NCBI GenBank assembly: GCA_020354645.1
Contig: CP070652.1
Location: forward strand, 190,330 to 254,329
Length of the DNA: 64,000 bases
From: Deltaproteobacteria bacterium
GTDB lineage: Bacteria; Desulfobacterota; Desulfobacteria; Desulfobacterales; G020354645
Direction: 5' to 3'
Part shown: positions 27,206 to 45,249 of the stretch, piece by piece
Layout: every line of letters begins with the position of its first letter
Numbering within the stretch: the stretch's first letter is position 1
The notes under the pieces: generated by a model
The model's input: only the letters and a program-made list of their open reading frames with translations
What the model was told of the DNA's origin: nothing
Database searches by the model: none
Translations under genes and position numbers: made by a program

Positions 27206-27366
27206 GTTTGAATGCATTTGTTGAAACAAACCCCCAGTCGGTTACGATAAGTGGTTTTTTAATTTTCAGTTCTGACAAATGGCTATGCGAAAATGATTTC
27301 TAATATTTCAAAGGCCCAAATTCTCTTTTATTAAGTAGCTTAAAAAATTATTTTGACGCTTCTCAT

Positions 27367-27685
27367 TTAGGAAACAAACAATTTTCGGGGAAAATTTGCG
27401 AAGGTTTCGCAACCATTTTCGGTTACCACAAAACTTTCGCTGATGATAAAACCCAAATCCTCTTTATCCTCATATTTTTGCCAAATTGGAGGTATCATAT
27501 GGAATGTCATGTTCGGTTTGAGTATCGTTTTATCTCCAGGGAGACAATGACGCCTTGATGTATATAAAACGACCAGCCGTATCCATCAGCAGCAGCATTT
27601 CCATACCGCCTTTGTCCATCATCTCTTTTGTCTTTCGGATCCACCGCTGAAATTCTTCCTTGGAGAATATTAATGTTTTACGCAT
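27367..27685 (-). pseudogene. Internally deleted, frameshifted relic of a DoeA/EutD-like M24 hydrolase gene
   Basis: The N-terminal piece MRKTLIFSKEEFQRWIRKTKEMMDKGGMEMLLLMD resembles the N-termini of 33904-35091 and 41526-42692. After a 1-nt frame change the C-terminal piece reads PGDKTILKPNMTFHMIPP...SESFVVTENGCETFANFPRKLFVS*. About 280 aa of central sequence are missing. Confidence 0.65.
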
Positions 27686-27696
27686 GTGTTGATCAT

Positions 27697-28728: not shown

Positions 28729-28773
28729 GGTTGCCCTCCTTCCACGGTTGTTAAAGATACGAATCCCTGCTTC

Positions 28774-30063: not shown

Positions 30064-30644
30064 ATCTGCGCCCCCCCGATATCTTCATCTTCATATTCGC
30101 TTTGTTGATCCGGCGACTGCCAGGCCTCCTTTTCAGTGAAATTCTTGATGATCGTTCTGATATACTGAATACAGGCAAGGCCGAACCCGATGGGAATGAT
30201 CACATAAAAAGTCCATTTCGGCACCCTCAGGGCGGGCGTCATATGCCCCATATTCATAGCGTTTATCAGATACTTATAAGAGAACCATGTCATAATCCCC
30301 ATCACAATGGCGCTGACAAGTGAAATGATGATGATGAACACCTTCTCCATTTTCTCTGGCATGGAATCTAGAAATGCCCCCATCCGAATGTGCCTGGCTT
30401 TTCTAACCGCATAGCTCACACCGGTAAATGTTGTCAGCATTACAAGGAACTTCGACACCTCTTCGGCAAAATAAATACTTTGGAAAAATGTTCGGGCAAA
30501 CACATTGGTGATAAGCAGTATCCCAAGTGACGCGACGCAAAAAACCAGAATTGACACCTCAACAGCATTGACTGCCGAACCGAGATACCTGTTTAACTGC
30601 TGGAAATTGGTCAACTTTTTTGGATCATCATTTCTTTCGTTCAT
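30060..30644 (-). CDS. dctQ: TRAP transporter small permease
   Basis: 194 aa, 4 TM helices, positioned directly upstream of and overlapping dctM. Confidence 0.85.
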   Translation of the reverse strand: MNERNDDPKKLTNFQQLNRYLGSAVNAVEVSILVFCVASLGILLITNVFARTFFQSIYFAEEVSKFLVMLTTFTGVSYAVRKARHIRMGAFLDSMPEKMEKVFIIIISLVSAIVMGIMTWFSYKYLINAMNMGHMTPALRVPKWTFYVIIPIGFGLACIQYIRTIIKNFTEKEAWQSPDQQSEYEDEDIGGAQI

Positions 30645-30715
30645 TGTTCACCTCTACCGTCAACAGGCTAAGGCACTGCAGCAATCATGCTGCTGCAGTG
30701 CCTAACAATGGTCCG

Positions 30716-31816
30716 CTATTTAATGTTTAGTGCTTTTTTTGCATTCTTGATATCCTTAAGAAGGGCATCGAGCATTGCCTGGGAACCTTCACCGCCGATT
30801 TCGATATATTTGGGATATACCGTTTCAGCCCTTTTCTTGAATGTGGCAATGGTGGCGTCATCCAGCACAGTAAACTTTAACTTGGATTTGGCCTTTTTCA
30901 TTTTTTCTTTATCGCTGGCATTTCTTTTAGTAATCCATTTCCCAGCAGGGATGATCGCATCGATCCAGAACTTGCGCATCTCCTGCTGAACCTCTTCGGG
31001 AAGGCTGTCAAAAAATTTCTGATTGACCGTGGGAATCCCCACAAACGGTTCGCTCTTTAGCTGAGTGCAGTAGTTCTGTACTTCATAGAACTTCATGCTA
31101 TAGATCGCAAAAAGCGGGTTGACCTGGGCATCAATAAGGCCCATCTGAAGCCCGCTGTAAACTTCCCCGTAGCTCATGGGCGTCGGAGCGGCCCCGTAAG
31201 CCTTGTAGTCTTCCACCAGCAGCTTCGAAGACATGAGTCTGAGCTTGAGACCTTTCATGTCATCCAGCGAGGTGATCGCCTTTTTGGAAGTCAGCCATTG
31301 CCACCCTTCAAACATTATCGACAGCGGCACCAGACCGTTCTTCCGGAAGGCCTCTTCCATCAGCGGCATGAACTCGCCGTTTCTGGCCATCCAGTCTAAT
31401 ACTTCCGGCACTTTTTCAGTGGGGAAGATATAGTTCAGCGCTAAAACCTGGGCCTGGGGAACAAATGAGCTGATCCAGGCGTAATCGGAAAAAACAAATT
31501 CTACCACCCCGAGCTGAGCCAGTTCATTGATATCGCCGCTGGCACCCAGCGTCCCGTATGGATATACATTAATATCAATCTTTCCGCCGGACCACTTTTT
31601 CATGTGATCAGAGAAATTTCTGGCCCAGACTGTCATAAAATCGCCTTCTATTTCTTCTGATGCCAGTCGCGCTTTAATGACCCTTCCCTCGTACTTCGCG
31701 GCAGAGACAATGCCGACACTAAAGATAAGCAAAAGCATCACTGTAATACTGATAATTTTTTTCACGGTAATACTCCTTCCTTTCCGGATTCGCAAAGCAG
31801 TCTTTTTACTTCGCAC
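30716..31816 (-). CDS. TRAP transporter substrate-binding protein (DctP family), copy 2
   Basis: Paralogous to 27697-28728. Shared blocks include EEIEG, YG.LG.SGDI.EL, GLKLRLMSS and MKFYEVQNY. Confidence 0.85.
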   Translation of the reverse strand: MRSKKTALRIRKGRSITVKKIISITVMLLLIFSVGIVSAAKYEGRVIKARLASEEIEGDFMTVWARNFSDHMKKWSGGKIDINVYPYGTLGASGDINELAQLGVVEFVFSDYAWISSFVPQAQVLALNYIFPTEKVPEVLDWMARNGEFMPLMEEAFRKNGLVPLSIMFEGWQWLTSKKAITSLDDMKGLKLRLMSSKLLVEDYKAYGAAPTPMSYGEVYSGLQMGLIDAQVNPLFAIYSMKFYEVQNYCTQLKSEPFVGIPTVNQKFFDSLPEEVQQEMRKFWIDAIIPAGKWITKRNASDKEKMKKAKSKLKFTVLDDATIATFKKRAETVYPKYIEIGGEGSQAMLDALLKDIKNAKKALNIK

Positions 31817-31855: not shown

Positions 31856-33064
31856 TCACCTCCTTTTAAGGAATTTCAAATTGTCTGCATTATTAAAAAA
31901 ATTCAGCGCTCCTCTTACGTGCATTTCAACTCCGACGCGCAGTACGTCTTCATCGATGTTAAACCGCGGATGATGGTGCGGGAAATGCGTCTCCTTGGCC
32001 GGATTACCGGCACCGAGGAAATAAAAAGCGCCGGGCACCCGGGCGGCAAACTCTGAAAAGTCCTCACCAGCCAGTGTAACAATAGAGACAATCTCCGGCG
32101 TAGGATTTAGTTCGTGTGCTGCTACCGAACGGACCAAACCGGTCATCACCGGGTGGTTGATCAACGTAGGGTGGCCATACAGGAAAGAGAGGTCATACTC
32201 GGCACGGTGTGCTGCGCATATATGCGATACAACCCGCTCAAAGCGCTTTTTCGGGTTGCCCTGGCTTTCTTCGTCCCCCTCAAACAGATAGCGCATCGTT
32301 CCCGACAAGGTGACTGAATCCGGGATTACGTTGGATGCGGTTCCGCCCTCGATTTTGCCGAACATGATAATCGTAGGCTCCGTGAGCACATCGATTTCCC
32401 GCGTCTGGATGATTTGGACTCCCTGAATGATGCCGGCGACGGTAAGAATCGGATCGATGGCGCTTTGCGGTGTAGCCGTGTGACCACCCCGGCCCTTCAC
32501 GATCAGCTTGAAATGCTCCATCCCCGCCATCACCGGTCCTTCAGAAATACCAATCTGCCCGGTCTGAATCGGCGTCCAGATATGCAGCCCCAGGCAGGCA
32601 TCCACATGAGGATTTTCCATGACCCCTTCTTCAATCATTGCCAGAGCACCCACGTTTTCCTCATTGGGTTCAAAGACAAATTTGATGTTGCCTTTGATCA
32701 GTTCCTTACAGGCCGATAAAATCTTGGCTGCCACCAGCAACATGGCCACATGGGCATCATGGCCGCAGGCGTGCATGACACCGGCATTGACTGATTTGTA
32801 AGGGACATCGTTTTCCTCCTGAATCGGTAATGCATCCATGTCGGCCCGCAGCAGCAGCGTCGGGCCCGGCCGGTCGCCCCTCAGAATACCCACCACGCCT
32901 GTCCGGTTCATCCCGCTGACCTCAAGACCGCATCCCTCCAGATAAGCGGAAACCCTTTTGGATGTCCGATGCTCTTGCAGGCCCAGTTCCGGATGCCGAT
33001 GAAAATCGCGTCTCAACTCAATAACTTCATCATTGAGTTCGGCAATCAGTTTGGAAATTTCCAT
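31856..33064 (-). CDS. M20-family amidohydrolase (N-acyl-amino-acid deacylase / hippurate-hydrolase type)
   Basis: MHACGHDAH metal-binding block, FEPNEE, GGHTATP. 402 aa. Confidence 0.85.
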   Translation of the reverse strand: MEISKLIAELNDEVIELRRDFHRHPELGLQEHRTSKRVSAYLEGCGLEVSGMNRTGVVGILRGDRPGPTLLLRADMDALPIQEENDVPYKSVNAGVMHACGHDAHVAMLLVAAKILSACKELIKGNIKFVFEPNEENVGALAMIEEGVMENPHVDACLGLHIWTPIQTGQIGISEGPVMAGMEHFKLIVKGRGGHTATPQSAIDPILTVAGIIQGVQIIQTREIDVLTEPTIIMFGKIEGGTASNVIPDSVTLSGTMRYLFEGDEESQGNPKKRFERVVSHICAAHRAEYDLSFLYGHPTLINHPVMTGLVRSVAAHELNPTPEIVSIVTLAGEDFSEFAARVPGAFYFLGAGNPAKETHFPHHHPRFNIDEDVLRVGVEMHVRGALNFFNNADNLKFLKRR

Positions 33065-33139
33065 CGAAAATCTCCTTTATCAATCTTCTCGCAAAAAAAC
33101 CGAACCGCTTTAGAACCGTAAACCTTAGTATCGGACAAA

Positions 33140-33871
33140 CTACATAAACCCTCTATATCGCTGTTTGACCACGGCAGAAAAGACAAAATTTATCATGGTT
33201 ATATAGTCAAAGACCGGTAAATTTACCGCCTCCTGAACGGCGGCGGCATATGGCGGCAACAGGCTGCATTCCAGAAGAATCGCACGGATGTTTGGTCCCC
33301 CAGCAACCAAACGCTTGGCCACACCAACCACTTCCGCTTCAACGGCATCGGCATCTAAAAATCCACTCTCCTCAATGGCAAACTCGTGGAAGTTTCTCTG
33401 GTCCTGCAAGCCGCCAATGACTAAATTGGATGAATCCGATACGCCGACGGCATTCAATAAATCATCGGTCACCTGGGTCGCATCGGCGGTGATCACACCC
33501 AACTTGGCTTCGCCACCGAGGATGCAGGAAATAAATGGAATTTGAATGAGACTCGATAGAAAAACCGGCACATGGAGTTCGCGAGCAAGTCGGGGTTGAT
33601 GGATCCCCATGAAGCCGCAATCACCAGTAACAGCTCTGACTCCCTGCTGCACGAGAGAACGGGCAGCATGCAGAAGGTTGTCGTAGACGGTCGTATCTTG
33701 GCCGATGGCCCTGTTCACCGAAAAATTCTCCACCTTTTGAAACCGCACCGGAAAGCTATATGTGGTTGCATTGGCCACGTCACCCGGGATGAATGGAACG
33801 GGGCTGTCGAGCAGTAAAATCCCGATTGCCTCCCCGGAACTCACCTGCCCTTTCTGGGTGTGATAGATCAT
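33140..33871 (-). CDS. Asp/Glu/hydantoin-racemase-superfamily protein (possible EutA analogue)
   Basis: 243 aa with two Cys-containing blocks (TGDCGFMG and LLECSLLPPY), as in two-base racemase/decarboxylase folds. The EutA assignment rests on context only. Confidence 0.55.
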   Translation of the reverse strand: MIYHTQKGQVSSGEAIGILLLDSPVPFIPGDVANATTYSFPVRFQKVENFSVNRAIGQDTTVYDNLLHAARSLVQQGVRAVTGDCGFMGIHQPRLARELHVPVFLSSLIQIPFISCILGGEAKLGVITADATQVTDDLLNAVGVSDSSNLVIGGLQDQRNFHEFAIEESGFLDADAVEAEVVGVAKRLVAGGPNIRAILLECSLLPPYAAAVQEAVNLPVFDYITMINFVFSAVVKQRYRGFM

Positions 33872-33903
33872 TGGTTGGTACTCCCTAGCCGAAACATTTC
33901 AGC

Positions 33904-35091
33904 TTAATTTTTGATAAAAAGCTTTCGCGGAAAATCGGCAAATGTTTCACAGCCGTTTGCAGTAACCCGGAATGATTCACTGCACTCAAACCCCCAGTCG
34001 TCCATCCACATGCCGAGAATCATGTGGAAGGTCATATTCGGTTCCAGAATGGTCTTATCGCCGGGCCGCAAGCTGGCGGTATGCTCCCCCCAGTCCGGCG
34101 GGTAATTCAGGCCCATGGAATAACCGATTCTTGATTCTTTTTCGAAACCCTCTTTGGCAATATGGTTTCGCCATACCAGCTCCACTTCCTCACATTGCAA
34201 GCCGGGTTTGATGGCATCCAGAGTTAGATTAAGCCCTTCGACGGTAATATCTGCAAGCTGTTTTAGCTTTTCCGGTGGATTTTTCCCAATAAAAGCGGTG
34301 CGGGCAATGGGACAGTGATACCGATGCCGGCAGGCCGCCAGTTCCAGGTTCACGGCCTCCTCTTTTTTATAGGGATGGTCCGTCCATGTCAAATGTGGGG
34401 CTGAGGTCTTTTCCCCGGTGGGCATCATGGGAACAATGGCCGGATAGTCTCCACCGAATTCCGGGGTACCGCTGGCCTGAGCATGATAAACGGCTGCGAC
34501 GGCATCGCATTCCCTCACACCGGCGGCCAAAGTGTCAATGGCGGTTTGCATTACCTTACCTGCTATCTTTCCGGCTTGCTGCATGTATTCGATTTCCCCG
34601 GGAGATTTAATGATACGGATCCAGTTGACCAAGAGATTGCCGTCGATAAATTGGCTGTCGGGCAGACTTTTTTTGAGCTCTCCAAAACTGCGCGCCGTAA
34701 AATAATACGCATCCATTTCAACACCAATGGGTCTTTTTTCCCAACCGCGCTGCTTGATTTCATCAGCCACAAAATTCATGGGGTGTTTATCCAGGGCCTG
34801 GACATAATGATCCGGATACCCGATGATATGCTCGTGAGATAGAAACACGGTGTGCCTGGCACCGTTGGCATCCATGCCCCGGCCGATCCAAAATGGTTCA
34901 TCTTCATCCAGGATAACCATGACCACTTGCGGCGTGTAAAAAGACCAACCATCATAGCCGGTGAGATAATTCATGTTGGCCGGATCTGCAACCAATAGAA
35001 TCTCAATCCCCTGCCGGGCCATGCTTTTTTTGGTTTTTTCAATCCTTGTTTTATATTCGTCAATTTCAAACAGCGCCATCATCTCCCCCAT
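33904..35091 (-). CDS. M24-family creatinase/ectoine-hydrolase-like protein (DoeA/EutD-like), copy 1
   Basis: Creatinase-type N-domain (LLVADPANMNYLTGYDGWSFY) plus a pita-bread C-domain (YPPDWGEHTASLRPGDKTILEPNMTFH). About 395 aa. Confidence 0.78.
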   Translation of the reverse strand: MGEMMALFEIDEYKTRIEKTKKSMARQGIEILLVADPANMNYLTGYDGWSFYTPQVVMVILDEDEPFWIGRGMDANGARHTVFLSHEHIIGYPDHYVQALDKHPMNFVADEIKQRGWEKRPIGVEMDAYYFTARSFGELKKSLPDSQFIDGNLLVNWIRIIKSPGEIEYMQQAGKIAGKVMQTAIDTLAAGVRECDAVAAVYHAQASGTPEFGGDYPAIVPMMPTGEKTSAPHLTWTDHPYKKEEAVNLELAACRHRYHCPIARTAFIGKNPPEKLKQLADITVEGLNLTLDAIKPGLQCEEVELVWRNHIAKEGFEKESRIGYSMGLNYPPDWGEHTASLRPGDKTILEPNMTFHMILGMWMDDWGFECSESFRVTANGCETFADFPRKLFIKN

Positions 35092-35209
35092 GATCTGTCA
35101 ATCGCTGCATCGGCCTTTTAATTCACAGCGGCCGGTGCGTGAACGTAAAAATAAATATAGGATGCAGTCAACGCGACGATCTTCATTAAGGCTTTCATAT
35201 CTCCGTGTA

Positions 35210-36424
35210 TTAAAGCCGCAAGTTTGCCACCCCTTTTTTTATCCTGGAAATGCCTTCCTGCAGCTTTTCCGTATCGGCGGCAAATGAAATACGGACATAA
35301 CCTTCACCTCTTTTTCCGAAAATACTTCCCGGTACCACAGCCACCTTGTGATCCTTTACAAGGTATCGTGCCAAATCCCAAGAAGTCATCCCGAAACTGG
35401 AGATGTTCGGAAAAGCATAGAACGTGGATTCAGGTTGAATGCAGGAAATACCGTCAATGGCATTCAGACCCTCATGGATGATTTTTCTTCTTTTATCGTA
35501 TGCTTTCACCATTTCGTGGACGCAATCCCGCGGAGCTTGGAGGGCTGCCAATGCGGCTCTCTGGGCCACGGCCGTTACGCCTGAAACCATATGTTCCTGG
35601 AGTTTTTCCATTTCATCGATGAAGGCCTTGGGAGCGACGGCATACCCCACCCGCCAGCCGGTCATGGCATAAGACTTGGAAAACGTAAAAGCGGAGATCG
35701 TCAACTCTTTCATACCATCAAGAGACCCGATACTCACATGCTTTTTGCCGTCAAAAAGAATATGTTCGTAGGGTTCATCCGACAGAACAAAGATATTGCG
35801 TTCTCTTGCAATTTGAGCAATTTGAATCAATATGTCTTCATCAAATACTGCCCCGGTAGGATTGGACGGTGAATTGAGGATAATGAGCTTGGTCTTGTTT
35901 GAGACAGCCGCCTTAATGTCGGCAGGGTCCACCTTGAATAAATTTTTTTCATAGGCCGCAACCGGGACGGGCCTGCCGCTGAAGAGCCGAATTTGGGAAT
36001 AGTAATCGTATCCGGGATCGACGACGATCACTTCATCACCGGGCTCGACAAGATGCAGCACGGTGTTGAAAATGACCTGCATGGCGCCGACGCTGACAAA
36101 GATTTCTGTGTCCGGATCGGCTATCACCTTGTTTTCTGTTTTTAGCTTCTCGGCAATTGCCTCTCTTAGATCCTGGAAACCCTTGGCAGGTGGATAGCGT
36201 GTATAGCCGTCGTCCAGGGCTTTTTTGGCTGCCTCGCAGATAAACGCCGGAGTGTCAAAATCAGGCTGGCCGATGCCGAGATTGATCACACCGGGGATTT
36301 CACCGGCAAAGGCGAACATCACTCGGATTCCCGACCAGTCCACTTCAAAGCTTCGTTTGGCTATAAATTGTTGTATATCCATTAAGACACCGTGTTGAAG
36401 ATAATAGTTATAAACTTTGCACAT
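35210..36424 (-). CDS. Class I/II PLP aminotransferase (aspartate-aminotransferase type)
   Basis: Blocks GQPDF, SPSNPTG and the FSKSYAMTGWRVGY Lys block. The start could instead be the ATG at 36382 (MDIQQF...). Confidence 0.85.
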   Translation of the reverse strand: MCKVYNYYLQHGVLMDIQQFIAKRSFEVDWSGIRVMFAFAGEIPGVINLGIGQPDFDTPAFICEAAKKALDDGYTRYPPAKGFQDLREAIAEKLKTENKVIADPDTEIFVSVGAMQVIFNTVLHLVEPGDEVIVVDPGYDYYSQIRLFSGRPVPVAAYEKNLFKVDPADIKAAVSNKTKLIILNSPSNPTGAVFDEDILIQIAQIARERNIFVLSDEPYEHILFDGKKHVSIGSLDGMKELTISAFTFSKSYAMTGWRVGYAVAPKAFIDEMEKLQEHMVSGVTAVAQRAALAALQAPRDCVHEMVKAYDKRRKIIHEGLNAIDGISCIQPESTFYAFPNISSFGMTSWDLARYLVKDHKVAVVPGSIFGKRGEGYVRISFAADTEKLQEGISRIKKGVANLRL

Positions 36425-36440
36425 GTGGTAAGTGCATCGG

Positions 36441-37391
36441 TCAACCGGTTACGGGAAGGACTAAATCACTGGCACCTTTCCCCGAAATCTTTAATTCCGG
36501 CGCGTGCCGCTGCACAATTTCCTGAACGATGGATGCAATTTTTACTTTTTCGCGGATAAGCCCCTGGTGCCAAGCTTCGGCAACCCAGGGTTTGTATATA
36601 TCTCCCTCCGAAGTACCCGGTTCAAATTTAAAATAGCACGGCGACGCGATCCGGGCGATTTCAGGGGCTTCGTAAGCGCGATACATGCCGCCGAATGAAT
36701 CCACGATAATGATATAAACATCCAAGGGTATATCTATGGCTTGACGGATGCTTCCCAAAATGGGAAGTGAGACATCGGATATCGGATTCATGGAGTTTAC
36801 CCCCATGGATTCAATTACTTTGGCACCTGCCGCACTGCAGTATCCGCCGAAAACCGAAAACTTGAATATGGTCTCTTTCGGAATAAGTCCTTCCGCCCGC
36901 ATTTTATTTAAAAGAAAAAGGACGCCTTCATCATAAACCAAAAACCCTCTGTGTCCGGCTTCGATATTTCTCATGATGTCTGCGATATGGTAAGAAACAT
37001 TATCCGAGCCCCTTAACCTGAATGCCTGCATGGCACCTTCAGCCGTCGAGATTTCCTTCGATCCCGCATCCCAGCCTTTTCGATGCCCGACGGTCATCAC
37101 AACTTCAATTTTTTCTTCATAGGCCATTTGGGCCATGGCTTTGAGCTCTTCGAAATCACAATATGTCGAACCCCCGACGGCTGCGATGGCCCGATGGATG
37201 GTCACATCTCTTTTGCGGGCTTCATCGATCATGGCCTCCATGGTTGAAGCTCTCTCGACCCCGGCAATTTCAATCCGGTAATTGGCGCCATCCGGGAAGG
37301 TTTTCGGGGATGTGGGCAGTTCGTATGCATCACGACCGGGAATGCCCTCTTTTTCCATAAAACCACGAATTTTCTTCAGTACTTCTGACAT
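36441..37391 (-). CDS. Conserved-looking protein of unknown function (316 aa)
   Basis: Clean ORF translationally coupled to the iclR stop (shared nt 37391). I could not recognise any catalytic motif. Confidence 0.55.
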   Translation of the reverse strand: MSEVLKKIRGFMEKEGIPGRDAYELPTSPKTFPDGANYRIEIAGVERASTMEAMIDEARKRDVTIHRAIAAVGGSTYCDFEELKAMAQMAYEEKIEVVMTVGHRKGWDAGSKEISTAEGAMQAFRLRGSDNVSYHIADIMRNIEAGHRGFLVYDEGVLFLLNKMRAEGLIPKETIFKFSVFGGYCSAAGAKVIESMGVNSMNPISDVSLPILGSIRQAIDIPLDVYIIIVDSFGGMYRAYEAPEIARIASPCYFKFEPGTSEGDIYKPWVAEAWHQGLIREKVKIASIVQEIVQRHAPELKISGKGASDLVLPVTG

Positions 37392-38212
37392 TATAGCCCC
37401 TCCTTATCATGATCGCCCGGATCGCCGAGTTGATGGGAAAGTTTGCTGCAAACTTCTCTAATTACTTTCCGGATTTGTTCGATACGCTGGTTTTTTAGCC
37501 GCATTGAAGGTCCAGAGACACTGATGGCATAATGAGCTTGACCCGTATGATTGAAAACCGGTGCAGCGACACACCTTAGACCGGCAGCCAATTCCTCATT
37601 ATCCACTGCAAATCCCTTCTTTCGAATTTTTTTAAGTTCTTTTTTAAGCTTTTCTTTGGAGGTAATCGTGTTGGGGCCAAGCGGTTGGAGCTTTTGCCCA
37701 GCCAAAAAATCATCCAGATCATCTGCAGGCAAATGCGCGAGAATCACTTTGCCCAGGGCGGTGCAGTAAGCCGGTGCAGTGGACCCCAACGGCGTGTCCA
37801 TGCGCAGAATCTCCCGGCTGTCGATTTTGTCCAAATGCAATATCCCCCGGCCGTTCCAGTATCCAAGATTGACAGTTTCATTGAAAGCGTTTGAAATCTC
37901 CTGCATGTAAGGGCGAGCAACCGATCGGATTTCAAATCTAGCGGCAACCTTCATTCCAAGTTCCAGTATCTTCAGAGTTGCCTGATACCGACCCTCGGTG
38001 TTTTTTTCAACATAACCCAAGTCACGGAGGGTGGCTAAAAATCGGTGGCTTCCGGCGCGGTTAATCCCTGAAATTTCGGCAACCCTTGAAACGGTTAACT
38101 CCTTCTCCGCTATGAGGAGTTCCAATATTTTAAGGCCCTTTTGAAGTGAGCTGATTTGGTAATATTTCTTTTTCGGTGGCGTCATCTTTATGGTTTTTGA
38201 ACTATGTCGCAA
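37391..38212 (-). CDS. IclR-family transcriptional regulator
   Basis: N-terminal wHTH (SLQKGLKILELL...LTVSRVAEISGINRAGSHRFLATL) plus a C-terminal IclR effector domain (AVDNEELAAGLRCVAAPV). The start may be the ATG at 38185. Confidence 0.9.
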   Translation of the reverse strand: MRHSSKTIKMTPPKKKYYQISSLQKGLKILELLIAEKELTVSRVAEISGINRAGSHRFLATLRDLGYVEKNTEGRYQATLKILELGMKVAARFEIRSVARPYMQEISNAFNETVNLGYWNGRGILHLDKIDSREILRMDTPLGSTAPAYCTALGKVILAHLPADDLDDFLAGQKLQPLGPNTITSKEKLKKELKKIRKKGFAVDNEELAAGLRCVAAPVFNHTGQAHYAISVSGPSMRLKNQRIEQIRKVIREVCSKLSHQLGDPGDHDKEGL

Positions 38213-38325
38213 AGATTTCTGCGGTGTGGATTGAAAGCGGCTAACAATTTATGAACGAATATCAGCGGGTAGATCCGGCGCTTGCAATTAATCCGGAGGG
38301 GAGTTCGCAACAGCTTTAAAAATTG

Positions 38326-38339
38326 TTCACTATATGTGA
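38326..38339. promoter_or_regulatory. Candidate operator TTCACTATATGTGA (TCAC-N5-GTGA palindrome) upstream of iclR
   Basis: A 13/14-identical copy (TTCATTATATGTGA) occurs at 41172-41185, in the divergent promoter region of the same island. Confidence 0.4.
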
Positions 38340-38541: not shown

Positions 38542-38862
38542 TCAATACCCAACCAGATCTTTGATAACTTTTTTTCTATCCCGGGGTTCGACCACGATAT
38601 CGCCGGTAACGATTTTGGTGCAGCTCAAAACCGATTTTCCGTTCACCATAACAACACATCCTTTGCACAACCCGCACCGACACGACTGGTAAAAGGCCAA
38701 GCCGCCATCATATCGCTCATTAATAAATTGCAAAATGTTTGATACACTCATGCGCTCATTAAGAGGTACTCGGTAGGTTTGATAATAAGGCTCTTTTCCA
38801 ATTTCCCGTGAAAACCGCAATATTTTTACATTGATTTCGGAATTAGACATTGTCCTGATCAT
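38542..38862 (-). CDS. Stand-alone 2Fe-2S protein equivalent to the N-terminal domain of SdhB/FrdB
   Basis: SCRCGLCKGCVVMVNGKSVLSC has the C-x4-C-x2-C-x11-C spacing of the SdhB 2Fe-2S site. At 106 aa it has no 4Fe-4S or 3Fe-4S domain. Confidence 0.75.
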   Translation of the reverse strand: MIRTMSNSEINVKILRFSREIGKEPYYQTYRVPLNERMSVSNILQFINERYDGGLAFYQSCRCGLCKGCVVMVNGKSVLSCTKIVTGDIVVEPRDRKKVIKDLVGY

Positions 38863-38867
38863 TCCCG

Positions 38868-40586
38868 CTACTCAATAGGGTTACGCGGATAAATCTCCAA
38901 ACCGGAGGCTGTTAATTCTACGACCAAATTGCATCGCCACTTTTCGATCTGCTGGGGCCAATCAATTCGGTAATGAACACCGCGGCTTTCTTCCCTGGCC
39001 AACGCGCATTGAATGATCGCTTCCAAGAGAATCAATAGGTTCCTGTTTTGGAGTACCTGTATCCATTCTGGATTATAGACGCGATCCTTGCAAGTAAGAC
39101 CAGATTGATGGTGTTCATGCGTGAGCTCTTTGAGAGAAGCCAGGGCCCCTTCAAGTTCCTGGCCATCGCGAATTGGGCCCACTTTCCCCCAAGCCCTTTC
39201 TTGAATCTTTTTCTTAACCATAAAGGTTGTATGGCTGCCTTTTCTTTCCAACGGAGCTTGGGCCTCCGTAACAATTTCATCGATTTGCGATTGGTCAACC
39301 ACTGACCCGTTTGCCTGTTTGGCATACTCGGCCGCCTTGCGACCGGCCATTTCACCTGCCACAAGTATCTCCATACAGGCATTTCCGGAAAGTCGGTTGG
39401 CGCCATGCAGCCCGCCGACCACTTCTCCTGCGGCAAATAGGCCCGGCAAAGAGGTCTGGCAATCCAGATCCACGTCGATCCCACCAACAAAAAAATGACA
39501 AGCAGGGCCAACTTCCAACGCTTCTCCCCGGGAGAGGATATCCCGGATGAATGAAAAGTCAAAGCCTTCAAACCGCCAATTCTTCTTCAGATGCAATTTT
39601 AAGGTCCGGTTGGCAAAATCATCCAAAATGTTGCGGGGTAGATGTGCTAGAGATAGATAAATGCCACCATTTGGTGTGCCGCGACCGTGCTTGACTTCAT
39701 AACCGATGGCTGCAGATAATTTGTCTCGCGTCGTTTTTTCGAGAAGTTCCGGATCCCAGCGGCGCATGAAACGCTCTCCCCGGCGGTTCAAAAGCCAACC
39801 ATCGAGAGAATCCACACTTTCTGCAACCAATGAAAAGGGAAAGTAACTGCCCCTGTAAGGCAGTGGTCCTATTAGGCAAAGTGGCATGAACTGTATCATT
39901 TCGAAGTCGACGAGACGGGCACCGGCTCGAAGGGCCATGGCGTAGCCATCGCCGGTGAGTTCCACTGCTCCGGTCTGGATAGGATACAGCATAGATCCGC
40001 CTCCTGTCGCCAGAATGACCGCGCGTGCGCGAAACACGGCAAATTCGCCGGTTCGCAAATCCAGCCCGATTGCTCCGATAACCGAATTTCCAGTGGTCAG
40101 CAGATCTATAACAAAGGTGTACTCTTTTACTGTTAGGTCAACGGAGCGCAGCTGTTTATTTAATACACGGACGATCTCTCGACCGGTGGTGCTGACACCC
40201 CGAGGATAACGGTGGCCTGGACACTGCATCACGCCTCTAATTTTCATGCCCCAGGCCATCATCTCTTTGACCCGTATCGGAGCTGCTTCAACAATTTTTT
40301 CAGCAAGGGGAAGGTTGTTGATGAATTTTCCTGCCCTTAAAATGTCTTCCAGAAAAATTTGAGGACTGTCTTTTGAATTTCCGACAGATAAGCCCAGAAC
40401 ATCGAAGATACTGGCCCCGTCGACGCTAATGTCTGCAGCAGCCATCAGGGTTGCACCGCTTTTCCCTATGCGTCCCTTGGTTACGATCAGTACTGAAGCC
40501 CCCTGTTTTGCCGCCGCGATGGCCGCTCGAGTGCCAGCACCTTCACTGCCGATAATCAAAACGTCGGTATCGTAAATAGTATTCAT
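38868..40586 (-). CDS. FAD flavoprotein of the succinate dehydrogenase / fumarate reductase / L-aspartate oxidase family
   Basis: DVLIIGSEGAGTRAA dinucleotide fold. GLFAAGEVVGGLHGANRLSGN and SRGVHYRIDWP blocks. The His used for covalent FAD in SdhA is absent (SGATLMAAAD), as in NadB. Confidence 0.85.
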   Translation of the reverse strand: MNTIYDTDVLIIGSEGAGTRAAIAAAKQGASVLIVTKGRIGKSGATLMAAADISVDGASIFDVLGLSVGNSKDSPQIFLEDILRAGKFINNLPLAEKIVEAAPIRVKEMMAWGMKIRGVMQCPGHRYPRGVSTTGREIVRVLNKQLRSVDLTVKEYTFVIDLLTTGNSVIGAIGLDLRTGEFAVFRARAVILATGGGSMLYPIQTGAVELTGDGYAMALRAGARLVDFEMIQFMPLCLIGPLPYRGSYFPFSLVAESVDSLDGWLLNRRGERFMRRWDPELLEKTTRDKLSAAIGYEVKHGRGTPNGGIYLSLAHLPRNILDDFANRTLKLHLKKNWRFEGFDFSFIRDILSRGEALEVGPACHFFVGGIDVDLDCQTSLPGLFAAGEVVGGLHGANRLSGNACMEILVAGEMAGRKAAEYAKQANGSVVDQSQIDEIVTEAQAPLERKGSHTTFMVKKKIQERAWGKVGPIRDGQELEGALASLKELTHEHHQSGLTCKDRVYNPEWIQVLQNRNLLILLEAIIQCALAREESRGVHYRIDWPQQIEKWRCNLVVELTASGLEIYPRNPIE

Positions 40587-40645
40587 TGGGTGGGAGGTGG
40601 ATCTGAACTACATGAAATAACCACCGTAAAATTAAAAGGATTGAA

Positions 40646-41107
40646 TCAAGGTTCAACTTCCACGATCATTTCAATTTCAACCGCGATGTTGCCCGGCAGC
40701 GAAATCGTACCGACGGCGGATCGAGCATGTTTTCCGGCAGGGCCGAAGACCTCTACGAGCAAATCAGAAGCACCATTGATCACTTTGGGTTGATCGTAAA
40801 AATCAGGTGTGCAATTGACCATAGCCAAAAGCTTAACGATTCGCCTGATCTTGTCCAGATCACCCAGTTCCTTTTTTAAAGACGCCAGCAGATTGACGAC
40901 CGTCCGGCGGGCAGCCTCGTAGCCCTGCTCTAAATTCAGATCCTGTCCCAGCTTGCCGGTGATCAGGGTTCCATCCGGTCGGCGTGGGTCGTGACCCGAT
41001 AAAAAGATCAGGTTGTCTGTCCGAACAGCCTTGATATAATTGGCTTCCGGCGTCACAGGCGATGGGAGTTCAATCCCCATTTCTTTGAGCTTTGCTTCGG
41101 GTTTCAT
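40646..41107 (-). CDS. RidA/YjgF/TdcF-family enamine/imine deaminase
   Basis: About 153 aa with family blocks LIFLSGH and ARSAVGTISLPGNIAVEIEMIVEV. AAGAGGG RBS before ATG 41107. The track ORF starts at 41137. Confidence 0.85.
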   Translation of the reverse strand: MKPEAKLKEMGIELPSPVTPEANYIKAVRTDNLIFLSGHDPRRPDGTLITGKLGQDLNLEQGYEAARRTVVNLLASLKKELGDLDKIRRIVKLLAMVNCTPDFYDQPKVINGASDLLVEVFGPAGKHARSAVGTISLPGNIAVEIEMIVEVEP

Positions 41108-41171
41108 AGACGGTGCCCTCTTATCAGGAAAATTCAATTTTAAGTGCTTCTAACAAAGCGGTTCAACATTA

Positions 41172-41185
41172 TTCATTATATGTGA
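41172..41185. promoter_or_regulatory. Second copy of the candidate IclR operator (TTCATTATATGTGA)
   Basis: Lies in the divergent intergenic region between ridA (minus) and the second doeA-like gene (plus). 13/14 identical to 38326-38339. Confidence 0.4.
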
Positions 41186-41467: not shown

Positions 41468-41525
41468 ACATTATGAGGAAATGGCCCCCCGTCAATCAAT
41501 AATTACCAAAGAGGTGATTGCAATA

Positions 41526-42692
41526 ATGTATTTTGAGTTCATAGAATACCAAGAAAGATTGAGAAAAATCAAGGAAGCCATGTACAAACAGGGAATCGAA
41601 GTTCTCCTGGTGACCGATCCCGCTAATATGAATTATGTGTCCGGTTATGACGGCTGGTCTTTCTATGTTCATCAGGGAGTCCTGGTCATTATTGACCGGG
41701 ACGAGCCGATCTGGTTTGGACGTCAGCAGGACAGCAATGGTGCACGCTTGACCACCTGGCTGAATGATGAGAGCATCCGCGGCTATCAGGACGACTACGT
41801 GCAATCGAAACTCAAGCATCAGATGGACTTTGTTGCGGACATACTCAAAGAGAGCGGTTGGGATCGAAGAAGCCTGGGGGTTGAAATGGACAATTATTAT
41901 TTTACCGGCCAGTGCCTGGAACAGCTTCGAAAGAATTTACCGCAAACCAGAATTATGGATGCCAATCTATTGGTTAACTGGATTCGGGTCATCAAGTCCG
42001 ATAAAGAAATCGAATACATGATAATGGCGGCCCGCATCGTGGAAAATGTCATGCAAACCGCCATCGAAGCAATTGGACCGGGGGTGAGAGAGGGTGATGC
42101 CGCCGGCAAGGTCTACCAGGCACAGATTCGCGGCACGCCTGAATATACCGGTGATTACAGCGCCATCATACCCATCATGCCGTCCGGCATCAGAACCTCC
42201 ACGGCCCATCTGTCCTGGACCGACCGGAAATATGAAACCGGGGACATGGTATTGCTTGAATTGTCAGGATGTAAATACCGCTATCATGCTCCGCTTTCCC
42301 GGACAGTGATGATCGGCAAAGCTCCGGCAGAACTTCAAGATATTGCCAAGGTGGTGATCGAGGGATTAAATCAAACCATCGATTTTATCAAACCGGGAGT
42401 CACCGCAGAAGAGGTGGAACAAAAATGGCGGGAGGCCATTGCAGGCAGTACCGTTGCCAAAGAGTCTCGTATCGGATATTGTTATGGACTGAATTACCCC
42501 CCGGATTGGGGTGAACACACCATTAGTTTGCGTCCCGGAGACAAGAACGTGCTCCAACCAAATATGACCTTGCATGTGATGCCCGGTATTTGGATCGAAA
42601 AATTCGGTTTCGAGTGCAGTGAACCGGTCCGGGTTACAGATAACGGTTGCGAGACATTTGTCAATTTTGCGAGAGAGCTTTTTATCAAATAA
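41526..42692 (+). CDS. M24-family creatinase/ectoine-hydrolase-like protein (DoeA/EutD-like), copy 2
   Basis: Collinear with copy 1 (LLVTDPANMNYVSGYDGWSFYVHQ..., YPPDWGEHTISLRPGDKNVLQPNMTLH, ARELFIK*). AAGAGGTGA RBS before ATG 41526. The track ORF starts at 41481. Confidence 0.8.
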   Translation: MYFEFIEYQERLRKIKEAMYKQGIEVLLVTDPANMNYVSGYDGWSFYVHQGVLVIIDRDEPIWFGRQQDSNGARLTTWLNDESIRGYQDDYVQSKLKHQMDFVADILKESGWDRRSLGVEMDNYYFTGQCLEQLRKNLPQTRIMDANLLVNWIRVIKSDKEIEYMIMAARIVENVMQTAIEAIGPGVREGDAAGKVYQAQIRGTPEYTGDYSAIIPIMPSGIRTSTAHLSWTDRKYETGDMVLLELSGCKYRYHAPLSRTVMIGKAPAELQDIAKVVIEGLNQTIDFIKPGVTAEEVEQKWREAIAGSTVAKESRIGYCYGLNYPPDWGEHTISLRPGDKNVLQPNMTLHVMPGIWIEKFGFECSEPVRVTDNGCETFVNFARELFIK

Positions 42693-42712
42693 CAGAAAGG
42701 TAGAATGAATCG

Positions 42713-43711
42713 ATGAAGGTTAGAATCCTGACGGAGAAAGAATTGCGCCGGTCCATTTCGGTCAATCAAGAGGCGCTTGCTGCAATTGAAGAAGCTTTCA
42801 GCTGGCTGGCGGAAGGAAAGGCGACGATGCCGCCAATTATGCATATCGAAGTGCCGGAATATAAGGGAGATGTGGATATCAAATCGGCCTATGTCTTAGG
42901 GCTGGAAAGCTTTGCCGTTAAATTGGGGGCCGGGTTTTTTGAAAACTACCGCCTGGGATTGCCCAACAGCCCCGCGATGATGGTTGTCCTCAGCGCCAAG
43001 ACCGGTTTTGCCGAGGCAGTTCTGTTGGATAATGCTTATCTGACCGATGTGAGAACCGGGGCCGCGGGCGCGGTGGTGGCAAAACACCTGGCACGCGCCA
43101 GCATCGAAAGTGCCGGTGTTATCGGAGCCGGCGCCCAGGGTCGCTACCAAATGATGGGGCTCAAGGTAGTTCGCGACTTCAAACGACTGCTGGCTTATGA
43201 CACCGACGCAGATCGGCTTGCACAATATAAACAGGAAATGGAGCCGGTCTTGGGGGTTGAGGTCATTGCTGCCGCTGACGCCAGCGAAGTCGTAAAAGAA
43301 AGCGATGCGGTGGTCACCAGCACACCTTCCCGCACGCCTTACCTGAAACCGGAATGGCTCCACCCGGGTTTACACATCACCGCCATGGGCGCTGATCTTC
43401 CGGATAAACAGGAGCTTGATCCGGAGGTGTTAAGACTGGCCGATTTGCTGGTATGCGACCGCAAAGCTCAATGCTTTTCAATGGGTGAGCTGCACCACGG
43501 CCTGACAACCGGGATTCTTTCCGAAGATTCTGACATTACCGAGTTGGGGGAAATCACATCCGGCAGGGCGCCCGGTCGGCAAAACGATGATCAGATCACT
43601 CTGTGTGATCTGACCGGCACCGGCGTCCAGGACACCGCAATAGCCTGTCTTGCTTTACACAAGGCCATTGAAAATGGGTTGGGGGTTGAAATCGACCTCG
43701 GTCTCCCGTGA
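42713..43711 (+). CDS. Ornithine cyclodeaminase / mu-crystallin-family NAD(P) enzyme (EutC-like)
   Basis: 332 aa. Rossmann GVIGAGAQG motif and family-typical blocks (LTDVRTGAA, TAMGAD). Confidence 0.87.
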   Translation: MKVRILTEKELRRSISVNQEALAAIEEAFSWLAEGKATMPPIMHIEVPEYKGDVDIKSAYVLGLESFAVKLGAGFFENYRLGLPNSPAMMVVLSAKTGFAEAVLLDNAYLTDVRTGAAGAVVAKHLARASIESAGVIGAGAQGRYQMMGLKVVRDFKRLLAYDTDADRLAQYKQEMEPVLGVEVIAAADASEVVKESDAVVTSTPSRTPYLKPEWLHPGLHITAMGADLPDKQELDPEVLRLADLLVCDRKAQCFSMGELHHGLTTGILSEDSDITELGEITSGRAPGRQNDDQITLCDLTGTGVQDTAIACLALHKAIENGLGVEIDLGLP

Positions 43712-43855
43712 TTATCACGACTGTTCCCATACAATTTAGCCCTAAAAAAACCACAGCTCACACGGAGGATATAACAAATCCAATTCAACCCCGATTCCAC
43801 AAATAAAGTCTGGCATGGGATACGTTGTTTAATGTTAACATAATAGGATAAAGCC

Positions 43856-44467
43856 ATGATAGAAATGGGAACATTGGTTAGCGAGGTCCGCGTGCCGGGT
43901 GGGTATGCCAAAGCATTTGAGATGAAAAAGTCACAATTTTTAACCATAATCGATGTTGAAGGGCAGCAGGTTGGTGATTTCGTGGCCTTCAGCAAGTCAG
44001 ATCTCAAAGAAAAACTTTCTCCGGTGCATACCAGAACCTCCCTGCTGAAGGTGAAGATTTCGATGGGTGATATCCTGCGGAGCAACTATCGAAACCCGAT
44101 GTTTAAAATTGTTGCCGATGCAGTGGGGTGTCATGACATACTGTTGGCCATGTGTGACGAACAACGTTACCTTGTCGATTATGGCGTCAAAGATCATCGA
44201 AGTTGTCTGGCTAATTTTGAAGAGGTGTTACGAACATATGGCATTTCACGAGAGCAGATTCCTGATCCCTTTAATACTTTTCAACACACTAAAATAAAGG
44301 CCGACGGGTCGCTGCTACAGCTGCCCGGCCTGTCGCAACCTGGAGACTGTATTGTGTTTCAGGCACTGATGGATGTAATCGGCGCCGTCTCTGCCTGCCC
44401 CATGGATTTAAATCCAATTGGCGGCAACAAAATAAGCGACCTCATCATTAAGATCAATGAGAGATGA
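43856..44467 (+). CDS. DUF1989-family protein (urea-carboxylase-associated / carboxyguanidine-deiminase-like fold)
   Basis: About 200 aa with N-terminal VPGGYAKAFEMKKSQFLTIIDVEGQQVGDF and a C-terminal ACPMDLNP-type block, as I recall for this family. Confidence 0.65.
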   Translation: MIEMGTLVSEVRVPGGYAKAFEMKKSQFLTIIDVEGQQVGDFVAFSKSDLKEKLSPVHTRTSLLKVKISMGDILRSNYRNPMFKIVADAVGCHDILLAMCDEQRYLVDYGVKDHRSCLANFEEVLRTYGISREQIPDPFNTFQHTKIKADGSLLQLPGLSQPGDCIVFQALMDVIGAVSACPMDLNPIGGNKISDLIIKINER

Positions 44468-44556
44468 AATAAGCTACTAGATCTGGTTATCAAATCACCT
44501 CTAGTCAATTCATCCCAATCGATTCCTCCGAAACTCGAATTACAGGGAAAACTTCT

Positions 44557-45249
44557 ATGGCAGACAGTTTGCCAACGAACATTCACGAGTTGGCGGAACT
44601 AAGAAATCGGACGGCAGTGTTTCACGACCGGATCCACGCCGGCCAGGTACTGGCTGAAATGTTGTCGGCTTTTGATCAAAACGGCGGAATCGTGCTGGGT
44701 ATCCCGGCAGGCGGTGTGCCGGTTGCCGCTGAAATTGCCAAAAAACTCGGTTTGCCGTTTGATATAGCCGTGGTGAGCAAAATCACGCTTCCGTGGAATA
44801 CTGAGGCCGGCTATGGCGCTGTGGCTTTCGACGGAACTCACCGGTTAAACGAGGAGATGCTGCCCCGGCTGGGATTATCGCAAAAGGAGATACGAGCCGG
44901 TATCGAAAAAACAAGTTCAAAAGTTCTCCAGCGGGTTGTCAGCCTGCGGGGTGAAAAACCTTTCCCTGAGCTTTCCCGAAAAAAAGTCATTGTGGTCGAC
45001 GACGGTCTGGCTTCCGGCTTTACCATGCGTGTGGCGGTGGAGACTTTGAGCAAAGCAGGTGCAGAACACATCATAGTGGCGGTACCCACCGGCCATAGCG
45101 AAACTGTAGAAAAAATTTCCACTAAAGTCGAAGCGCTCTATTGCCCGAATATTCGTGGCGGTTGGCGTTTTGCGGTGGCAGATGCCTATGAGAAATGGTC
45201 GGATGTACCCGACATTGAAATTCGTAAAATAGTCAAGAAACTTCTGTGA
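44557..45249 (+). CDS. Type-I phosphoribosyltransferase-domain protein
   Basis: PRPP-binding loop VIVVDDGLASGFTM. 230 aa. Confidence 0.8.
   Translation: MADSLPTNIHELAELRNRTAVFHDRIHAGQVLAEMLSAFDQNGGIVLGIPAGGVPVAAEIAKKLGLPFDIAVVSKITLPWNTEAGYGAVAFDGTHRLNEEMLPRLGLSQKEIRAGIEKTSSKVLQRVVSLRGEKPFPELSRKKVIVVDDGLASGFTMRVAVETLSKAGAEHIIVAVPTGHSETVEKISTKVEALYCPNIRGGWRFAVADAYEKWSDVPDIEIRKIVKKLL

Follow-up and report, generated by a model that had tools for sequence, protein, structure and literature searches.

A soluble flavoprotein/2Fe-2S pair preceded by a Rid gene within a putative ectoine-type catabolic island of a Desulfobacterales genome

We analyzed a 64-kb stretch of the genome of a Desulfobacterales member of the sulfate-reducer type (Deltaproteobacteria bacterium, assembly GCA_020354645.1, contig CP070652.1, positions 190,330 to 254,329 of the forward strand), hereafter referred to as the window. 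The analysis focused on an operon of three minus-strand genes encoding a Rid-family protein, a flavoprotein related to the catalytic subunits of succinate dehydrogenase and fumarate reductase, and a small 2Fe-2S protein:

40646..41107, minus strand: first gene of the operon, Rid1-subfamily putative imine/enamine deaminase, 153 amino acids (aa), Pfam PF14588 and PF01042
38868..40586, minus strand: SdhA/TfrA-like flavoprotein, predicted non-covalent FAD and altered substrate site, 572 aa, Pfam FAD_binding_2 and Succ_DH_flav_C
38542..38862, minus strand: stand-alone 2Fe-2S protein corresponding to the N-terminal domain of SdhB/FrdB/TfrB, 106 aa, Pfam Fer2_3 only

The three open reading frames (ORFs) are intact and arranged head to tail in the order Rid, flavoprotein, 2Fe-2S protein. 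The spacers are 59 nt between the first two genes and 5 nt between the last two, and the 2Fe-2S gene is apparently translationally coupled to the flavoprotein gene. The ATG at 41107 yields a Rid protein of 153 aa, a length equal to that of all close homologs. Pfam matches comprise FAD_binding_2 (1.3e-56) and Succ_DH_flav_C (1.4e-19) in the flavoprotein, YjgF_endoribonc (PF14588, 72 bits) and Ribonuc_L-PSP (PF01042, 48 bits) in the Rid protein, and Fer2_3 (1.6e-21) as the sole domain of the 106-aa protein. The latter carries the Cys ligands C61-x4-C66-x2-C69-x11-C81 with an additional C63, and it terminates ('...KDLV') exactly at the position where the N-domain of E. coli FrdB ends. The TfrB model of NCBIfam (488 positions) covers this protein only over residues 3-95, scoring 74 bits (cutoff 385). 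No transmembrane or hydrophobic segment was predicted in any of the three proteins, and neither a membrane-anchor gene nor a second Sdh-like gene was found in the window. An earlier note on this DNA had described three co-directional genes with short spacers, a partner reduced to the 2Fe-2S domain without a 4Fe-4S or 3Fe-4S domain, and the lack of a membrane-anchor gene. Its coordinates and gene anatomy were correct, the Fer2_3-only architecture and the Cys pattern confirm the second point, and the third holds across the entire window. Together, these observations support a soluble two-subunit module devoid of 4Fe-4S/3Fe-4S domains and of an anchor, whose subunits we infer to form a complex.

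The flavoprotein could not be assigned to any characterized family. Among the curated NCBIfam models tested, TfrA (NF004900) gave the best score (403 against a cutoff of 718), followed by sdhA_frdA (TIGR01812; 294 against 567), nadB (TIGR00551; 259 against 453) and AprA (118 against 557), and every score was thus under its cutoff. The AlphaFold2 model of the flavoprotein is confident (pLDDT 89, pTM 0.92) and was compared to solved structures with Foldseek. The fold is nearer to complex II flavoproteins (TM-score 0.82-0.85) than to NadB (0.67-0.74), which weakens the NadB-likeness proposed by the earlier note, and the best match is the SdhA subunit of M. smegmatis Sdh1 (7d6v, TM-score 0.84). 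At the sequence level, the flavoprotein is 27-29% identical to E. coli SdhA and FrdA, and its best non-self match reaches 63% identity.

We then aligned the flavoprotein to E. coli SdhA, FrdA and NadB (all from NC_000913) to inspect the active site. The His that binds FAD covalently is missing, as the earlier note had claimed: 'GKSGATLMAA' stands opposite 'RS-HTV' of SdhA and FrdA, and this residue is missing clade-wide. The same note had credited the protein with all of the SdhA/FrdA/NadB blocks, and this is not the case because two of them are replaced. The block 'QFHPT' reads 'QFMPL', with His replaced by Met234 and Thr by Leu236, and 'L(V/M/L)TEGxRGEG' reads 'LVAESVDSLD', preceded by a 9-residue insertion; in this loop Thr is replaced by Ala255, Glu256 is kept and the Arg of RGEG is replaced by Asp. 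M. smegmatis Sdh1 SdhA, unlike the flavoprotein, retains HPT and TEGVRGDGG. In contrast to these replacements, Arg287 (the proton shuttle), His364 and Arg398 (the carboxylate clamp) and the C-terminal ESRGxH block are kept and are invariant in 30 family members. The C-terminal block ESRGVHYRIDWP, which had been regarded as NadB-like, is not specific to NadB, since the equivalent ESRGAHYRxDFP is found clade-wide and in SdhA. The alignment suggests that the site for a second carboxylate is lost and replaced by hydrophobic or acidic side chains (Met234, Leu236, Ala255, Asp259). The NadB residues that bind L-aspartate (Glu121, His244 and Thr259) correspond to Cys122, Met234 and Ala255, and L-aspartate, put forward in the earlier note as a possible substrate, is therefore unlikely, in line with the low nadB score. 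More generally, the flavoprotein is unlikely to be a succinate, fumarate or aspartate enzyme. FrdA His44 variants and NadB indicate that non-covalent FAD disfavors the high-potential oxidation of succinate-like compounds and suits amine oxidation or reductive catalysis.

Relatives of the flavoprotein form more than 2,000 protein clusters at E <= 1e-20. A scan of species-representative genomes recovered at least 523 of these relatives; the best 80 loci were kept, about 50 of them with a short partner, and genomic contexts were drawn from these 80 loci and from nine look-ups of encoding contigs. A short Fer2_3 ORF (~100-150 aa) lies directly downstream of the flavoprotein gene in 49 of the 50 non-redundant related loci. 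This short partner was found next to every flavoprotein at least ~37% identical to that of the window, with frequent 4-nt gene overlaps, whereas flavoproteins at ~35% identity are accompanied by an FrdB-like protein of 220-250 aa or by a Fer2_3-Fer4-2xCCG fusion of 540-580 aa. The carriers of the short form span more than ten phyla in all, including bacteria (Desulfobacterota, Chloroflexota, Bacillota, Acidobacteriota, Actinomycetota, Alpha-, Beta- and Gammaproteobacteria, Spirochaetes and Atribacteria) and archaea (Bathyarchaeia and Asgard archaea), and they include aerobes such as Halalkalibacter oceani and Ammoniphilus. None of the 50 short-partner loci presented an anchor or a CCG protein. 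A small 4Fe-4S ferredoxin adjoins the pair in a few loci and lies directly upstream in two of them (L002 and L031). When the 106-aa protein was searched against all proteins of the representative library, 1,706 clusters were recovered; among the best 150 Fer2_3 cluster representatives, 99 were no longer than 160 aa and 95 of these possessed the four-Cys motif.

The neighbor-joining tree recovered the short-partner clade with a bootstrap of 90/100, a value that drops to 56/100 once three deep members are included, and it separated the sampled relatives from E. coli SdhA, FrdA and NadB at 93/100. The flavoproteins of the window and of locus L001 were grouped at 100/100. The truncated SdhB-like gene singled out by the earlier note is thus a recurrent companion of the flavoprotein, which falls in a separate clade and does not group with E. 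coli SdhA or FrdA. Two candidate explanations were rejected on these grounds. The short partner is not a local truncation artifact, since the same form, with its Cys ligands intact and its domain boundary clean, is found across more than ten phyla. Likewise, residues, family scores and tree reject a bona fide FrdA, SdhA or NadB. Targeted literature searches found no characterized member of the short-partner clade. As far as the literature could be searched, the combination of such a flavoprotein with a stand-alone SdhB N-domain, conserved across bacteria and archaea, is undescribed, although the folds themselves are known. The SdhA/FrdA superfamily is a textbook case, and yet a large branch of it apparently lacks a studied member; automatic annotation gives the genes of this family the misleading label "succinate dehydrogenase/fumarate reductase flavoprotein".

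The nearest solved structures to the Rid protein are 3d01, PA0814 (9bk9; E-value of 1.6e-22) and ACIAD3089 (9bkb; 7e-20). The catalytic Arg equivalent to RidA Arg105 is kept within 'GKHARSAVG', in which 'HARSAVG' aligns with 'HARAAVG' of PA0814. Both PA0814 and ACIAD3089 belong to the Rid1 subfamily and have shown imine and 2-aminoacrylate deaminase activity (PMC5619798). By homology, the protein of the window is a putative imine/enamine deaminase of the Rid1 subfamily. The RidA label given by the earlier note was right for the family (YjgF fold, catalytic Arg) and wrong for the subfamily. Desulfobacteraceae possess many homologs at 72-75% identity that lie beside fabF/acpP or ilvBNC, and these housekeeping contexts suggest that the Rid gene of the operon is a recruited paralog. 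A single-sequence phmmer search detected no Rid gene near homologs of the pair. Using several Rid seeds, a Rid-family gene was detected within 10 kb in 4 of the 50 other short-clade loci (875 kb) and in none of the control loci (834 kb), an enrichment that is not significant (p ~0.07). One of these cases, a proteobacterial metagenome-assembled genome (locus L046, 8746-13353), encodes in succession a flavoprotein, a Fer2_3 protein, a Rid protein of the PF01042 type and a short-chain dehydrogenase/reductase (SDR), with an arginase-family gene upstream in divergent orientation. This locus represents an independent assembly of the trio that uses a different Rid subfamily.

The three genes lie inside a catabolic island defined by NCBIfam and Pfam gene content, with the following features:

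21736-45249 (~21.7-45.2 kb): catabolic island, including a major facilitator superfamily (MFS) transporter
22971..31816, minus strand: class III aminotransferase, EutB dehydratase, arginase-family hydrolase and a tripartite ATP-independent periplasmic (TRAP) transporter (two DctP, DctQ, DctM)
25587-26582, minus strand: arginase-family (HutG/agmatinase-like) gene
31856..37391, minus strand: unknown 316-aa protein, class I aminotransferase, EutD/DoeA-like M24 hydrolase, EutA-type racemase-fold protein and M20 amidohydrolase
37391..38212, minus strand: IclR-family regulator (Pfam HTH_IclR and IclR_C), first gene of the downstream island operon
38322..38339, minus strand: second palindrome copy TCACATATAGTGAACAAT, located between the 2Fe-2S gene and iclR (gap of 329 nt)
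41168..41185, minus strand: operator-like palindrome TCACATATAATGAATAAT, immediately before a promoter-like site (41166-41137)
41481..45249, plus strand: divergent operon with a second EutD/DoeA-like M24 hydrolase, EutC-like cyclodeaminase, DUF1989 protein and phosphoribosyltransferase-like protein

Several of these proteins pass the cutoffs of NCBIfam models: the EutA-type protein (NF005679; 284 against 231), EutB (NF005680; 443 against 413), the cyclodeaminase (NF006141; 431 against 408) and the class III aminotransferase (NF005684). Others remain below them, namely the cyclodeaminase on the EutC model TIGR02992 (383 against 472) and the two M24 hydrolases on the EutD/DoeA model TIGR02993 (502 and 471 against 613). 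The M20 protein stands where EutE would be and scores 257 against 550 on the DoeB2 model. No aldehyde dehydrogenase (Ssd/DoeC) was found in the island, and an OCD-family gene is present near the pair. A 2026 survey of ectoine clusters in Thermodesulfobacteriota reported two eutD homologs, no eutE and no ssd, without synteny with the proteobacterial clusters and with unexplained 'gray' genes; the flavoprotein is not discussed in that survey (PMC13188858), the sole account that literature searches on ectoine catabolism yielded, in which the cluster type is characterized by gene content only. These matches point to a putative ectoine/hydroxyectoine catabolic cluster of the Thermodesulfobacteriota type. 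How ectoine-type osmolytes are turned over anaerobically in marine sediments has hardly been explored, and this island, with its interchangeable redox modules, offers concrete genes for such a study.

The operon is probably co-regulated with the rest of the island. An 18-nt palindrome, TCACATATA[A/G]TGAA[T/C]AAT (pattern TCACATATARTGAAYAAT), has exactly two matches in the 64 kb, against a chance expectation of 0.23 matches even with up to three mismatches. The rid ATG is preceded by one copy at a distance of 61 nt, and the copy in the iclR gap is conserved in a close relative (L094). The presence of the palindrome in front of both the rid and the iclR operons suggests that the rid-flavoprotein-2Fe-2S operon is part of the island regulon. 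The IclR-family protein, which among NCBIfam models matches BhcR best (score 196, cutoff 350), is a candidate binder of this shared sequence.

Some other genes were noted in passing. The 316-aa protein (36441-37391, minus strand) has no sequence match in Pfam, NCBIfam or the PDB. It is 84-98% identical over more than 100 Desulfobacterales contigs, where its gene always adjoins the class I aminotransferase gene, and its AlphaFold2 model (pLDDT 50) presents a beta/alpha repeat pattern with generic TIM-barrel matches only (TM-score ~0.4). The DUF1989 and phosphoribosyltransferase-like genes (43856-45249, plus strand) come after the EutC-like gene; we take DUF1989 to be a family of carboxyguanidine deiminase subunits that also includes a trimethylamine N-oxide (TMAO) demethylase domain. 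Outside the island, a 590-aa membrane protein and a 590-aa cNMP-binding Ser/Thr protein kinase are encoded at 1926-3698 (minus strand) and 5325-7097 (plus strand). The membrane protein combines NarI-like and 4Fe-4S domains, as do redox-loop subunits of sulfate reducers.

Comparing related islands, we observed that the redox module is accessory and interchangeable: near-identical islands carry another flavoprotein module, none, or a deletion. Four sister islands (L059, L066, L069 and L072) possess enzyme orthologs that score 500-840 bits against those of the window, and the core orthologs are ~85-90% conserved in three of them (L059, L066 and L072). Their flavoprotein, however, is only ~35% identical to that of the window. 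It is encoded at ~10.0-13.3 kb of each locus, between the M24 and M20 genes, and is TfrA-like with 'QFYPCG' in place of 'QFHPTG'. Its partner is a Fer2_3-Fer4-2xCCG fusion of 542-553 aa whose C-terminal part scores 397 bits on the GlpC model (cutoff of 278). This TfrA-like module constitutes a second uncharacterized Sdh-like module in the same pathway context. Locus L157, from the same genome as L001, presents the core island without any flavoprotein. Finally, L094 (JGI 3300041075) displays 92-94% DNA identity to the window over 10 kb (33123-43000 were compared) and lacks precisely the segment 40545-38519, so that the first ~42 nt of the flavoprotein ORF are left. The same locus has a frameshift in the Rid gene ahead of the catalytic Arg, a 228-bp internal deletion in eutA, a 144-bp gap in the intergenic region between rid and the second M24 gene, and a 343-bp insertion between the genes of the 316-aa protein and the aminotransferase. 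We also scanned metagenomes for closer relatives: protein patterns of the trio retrieved no confirmed relative, and an 18-mer from the 5' end of the flavoprotein gene, which is kept in L094, retrieved only unrelated genes with Rossmann motifs.

The closest homologs of the pair (62-63% identity) are found in another fixed operon, composed of an arginase-family gene, EamA, the flavoprotein, Fer2_3 and Ldh_2, and continued by a carbamoylase-type M20 gene, a second arginase-family gene, an EutA-like gene, an SDR and a TRAP transporter. The arginase-family gene that heads this operon (L001, 7621-8613) is 87% identical to that at 25587-26582 of the window, whereas the flavoproteins are 62% identical. 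Across the 50 loci, the neighbors of the pair are heterogeneous and yet biased to C-N hydrolases and enzymes dependent on pyridoxal phosphate (PLP): M20 in 13 loci, M24 in 11, and arginase-family and PALP (PLP dehydratases) in 7 each, with hydantoinase, creatininase and dihydropyrimidinase-type amidohydrolases among the others. These immediate neighbors are too heterogeneous across the clade to name one substrate. The arginase-family genes beside the pair hint at a guanidino or amidino substrate. We also considered that the pair might replace the absent aspartate-semialdehyde dehydrogenase Ssd, and this idea was rejected because the chemistry does not fit and L157 presents a core island without flavoprotein.

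Our preferred reading, which we hold tentatively and at somewhat less than even confidence, is that the pair acts as a soluble dehydrogenase with FAD and a 2Fe-2S cluster, converting an amino or imino acid intermediate of the island to an imine whose hydrolysis Rid1 would assist. The two proteins of the pair would form a cytoplasmic heterodimer equivalent to a stripped-down SdhAB/TfrAB catalytic head. In this complex, the non-covalent FAD would take a hydride from a carboxylate-bearing nitrogen compound, whose carboxylate may be held by His364 and Arg398 while Arg287 acts as the proton shuttle. Since the second-carboxylate site is gone, the substrate would most likely be an amino or imino acid that has a single carboxylate and, at its far end, a neutral or cationic group. 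The electrons would then pass singly through the one 2Fe-2S cluster to a separate soluble acceptor, and the imine or enamine product would yield a 2-oxo acid and ammonia, either spontaneously or faster with the co-transcribed Rid1. In the genome of the window, the module would be an accessory redox unit of the putative ectoine/hydroxyectoine island. Candidate substrates, which the sequences do not allow us to rank, include ectoine and hydroxyectoine, 2,4-diaminobutyrate and its hydroxylated or acetylated forms, and an acid with a guanidino or amidino group that would tie in with the arginase-family enzyme. Succinate, fumarate and L-aspartate are improbable substrates.

Several lines of context were counted in favor of this dehydrogenase. 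The M20, M24 and arginase-family neighbors of the pair are C-N hydrolases that release amino acids. Families of imine reductases are found nearby (Ldh_2 directly downstream in the closest subclade and the OCD-family gene in the window). The GlpC-like partner in the sister islands corresponds to the architecture of quinone-linked dehydrogenases, which argues for the oxidative direction. The earlier note had further cast the pair as an oxygen-independent substitute for steps of an aerobic pathway. The classical ectoine route proceeds through hydrolases, a transaminase and an NAD-dependent dehydrogenase (PMC5924519). It has no oxygen-dependent step and the family is also found in aerobes, so that this part of the proposal is unfounded.

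Other observations weigh against an amino or imino acid dehydrogenase. Enzymes of the Sdh superfamily mostly work on C-C bonds, and non-covalent FAD suits a reductase equally well. No gene for an electron acceptor was found near the pair, and the literature searches yielded no characterized member of the clade to back the proposed substrate or reaction direction. The core island can do without the module, as seen in L157 and L094, and the closest homologs sit in a different operon (arginase-family, EamA, Ldh_2, M20, SDR). Moreover, the active-site loop varies strongly among subclades of the short-partner family, and the neighbors of distant members therefore say little about the enzyme of the window. 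The linkage with Rid is weak (4 of 50 loci against none in the controls) and only suggestive, and the island EutB is an equally plausible client of the Rid protein. Rid-assisted imine chemistry, as formulated in the earlier note, is accordingly plausible from the catalytic Arg and the L046 trio, whereas the proposed linkage of Rid to the pair finds little echo across the clade.

The role of the Rid protein calls for an explanation of its own. EutB is a PLP dehydratase of the type that RidA proteins classically serve. It is quite possible, even if we lean against it, that the Rid protein is a recruited housekeeping deaminase that quenches the enamine or imine formed by EutB and that its position before the flavoprotein gene is incidental. 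The gene content of the island, which includes EutB, is compatible with this, as are the homologs at 72-75% identity beside ilvBNC or fabF and the lack of a nearby Rid gene (within 10 kb) in 46 of the 50 related loci. Rid1 proteins also accept 2-aminoacrylate as a substrate and can stand in for RidA in a ridA mutant (PMC5619798). On the other hand, the spacer to the flavoprotein gene is just 59 nt and the promoter region is common to the trio, and sister island L066 has EutB but no Rid gene. The independent Flavo-Fer2_3-Rid operon of L046 and the joint loss in L094 of Rid (frameshift) and the pair (deletion) provide some support for a functional coupling of Rid to the pair.

The main rival for the pair itself reverses the direction of the reaction. 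It would be a C-C oxidoreductase that is fed by ferredoxin through the 2Fe-2S protein and reduces an alpha,beta-unsaturated carboxylate of the island as an electron sink, by analogy with urocanate or fumarate reductases. Candidate substrates are 2-methyl-1,6-dihydropyrimidine-4-carboxylate, the proposed product of EutB, or a dehydro-amino acid. The fold, Arg287, His364 and Arg398 are indeed those of fumarate reductases, non-covalent FAD is typical of reductive enzymes, and a 4Fe-4S ferredoxin gene is found directly upstream of the pair in L002 and L031 and near it in a few other loci. The island also encodes EutB, the source of the unsaturated ring compound in the published scheme (PMC5924519). 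However, it already possesses a EutC-like reductase of the NADH type for the same step, and the GlpC-like partner of the sister islands indicates the dehydrogenase direction. Many family members are found in aerobes, and the Rid, Ldh_2 and OCD neighbors are better matched by imine chemistry. We consider a reductase rather unlikely overall.

It is very unlikely that the pair works simply as a fumarate reductase, succinate dehydrogenase or L-aspartate oxidase of the ordinary soluble kind, handling aspartate or fumarate derived from ectoine. Such a function would suit a catabolic route that ends at L-aspartate (PMC5924519), a flavoprotein with the fold of complex II, and best family matches to TfrA, SdhA/FrdA and NadB. 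These matches are nevertheless all under their cutoffs, the flavoprotein belongs to a separate clade, and the residues for the second carboxylate as well as NadB Glu121 are all replaced, whereas the closest solved relative, M. smegmatis Sdh1, has HPT and TEGVRGDGG. Finally, the notion that the 2Fe-2S gene is a truncated FrdB/TfrB remnant of a decaying or non-functional module, which could draw on the 220-250-aa or 540-580-aa partners of ~35% identical relatives and on the deletion of the pair in one close relative (L094), is effectively refuted by the conservation of the short form across more than ten phyla, where the Cys ligands are intact and the domain boundary is clean, by the monophyly of the short-partner clade, and by the two intact ORFs and the confident flavoprotein model.

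Returning to the amino or imino acid dehydrogenase, a broader proposal can be formulated, which we regard as doubtful in its full extent. The short-partner clade might represent a distinct and phylum-spanning class of minimal Sdh-type dehydrogenases, with non-covalent FAD and a single 2Fe-2S cluster, that shifted from dicarboxylates to acids of the amino, imino or guanidino type and use soluble carriers as acceptors. In Desulfobacterales, such enzymes might perform a flavin-based oxidative deamination in the anaerobic use of ectoine-type osmolytes, and Rid proteins might have been recruited repeatedly to process the imine.

Among known systems, a functional likeness can be drawn with HcnABC, the opine dehydrogenase OdhABC and D-hydroxyproline dehydrogenase, in which a flavin-dependent dehydrogenase acting on a C-N bond adjacent to a carboxylate is combined with a 2Fe-2S subunit of ~100 aa as electron relay. 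These systems are not homologous to the pair, however: they use DAO-family flavoproteins and 2Fe-2S subunits of the Fer2_4 type. Flavoproteins are also paired with Rid proteins that speed imine hydrolysis in the cases of DauA with Rid2/3 and DadA with DadY; the likeness with both groups of systems draws on PMC5619798, PMC9714295 and PMC4575208. The partner of DauA is Rid2 or Rid3, and Rid1 proteins are inactive on iminoarginine, whereas the Rid protein of the window is a Rid1. NadB shares non-covalent FAD, the fold and the catalytic Arg with the flavoprotein, and it converts an amino acid to an imine that is then hydrolyzed, which is the chemistry that we propose for the pair. In contrast to the pair with its conserved 2Fe-2S partner, NadB works alone without an Fe-S subunit; its Glu121, His244 and Thr259 are not conserved in the flavoprotein, whose score on the family model is under the cutoff and whose fold matches NadB less well than SdhA.

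The thiol:fumarate reductase of methanogens, TfrAB, is soluble and anchorless like the pair, and TfrA is the best-scoring curated family. A TfrAB-like module holds the equivalent place in the near-identical sister islands. Nonetheless, the partner in the window lacks the 4Fe-4S and CCG domains involved in thiol or quinone chemistry, the TfrA score (403) is well under 718, and identity to the sister-island flavoproteins is only ~35%. Finally, the catalytic head of complex II (SdhA/SdhB and FrdA/FrdB) resembles the flavoprotein in its fold, its catalytic Arg and the His/Arg clamp of the carboxylate, and the 2Fe-2S domain of SdhB/FrdB is homologous to the 106-aa protein with the same four Cys ligands. 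The flavoprotein differs from it by the loss of the covalent-FAD His and the replacement of the HPT and TEGxRGEG loops, and its partner by the absence of the 4Fe-4S/3Fe-4S domain and of a membrane anchor. The short-partner pair thus shows how far the head of complex II can be stripped, with one cluster, no anchor and a dicarboxylate site that appears to be lost.

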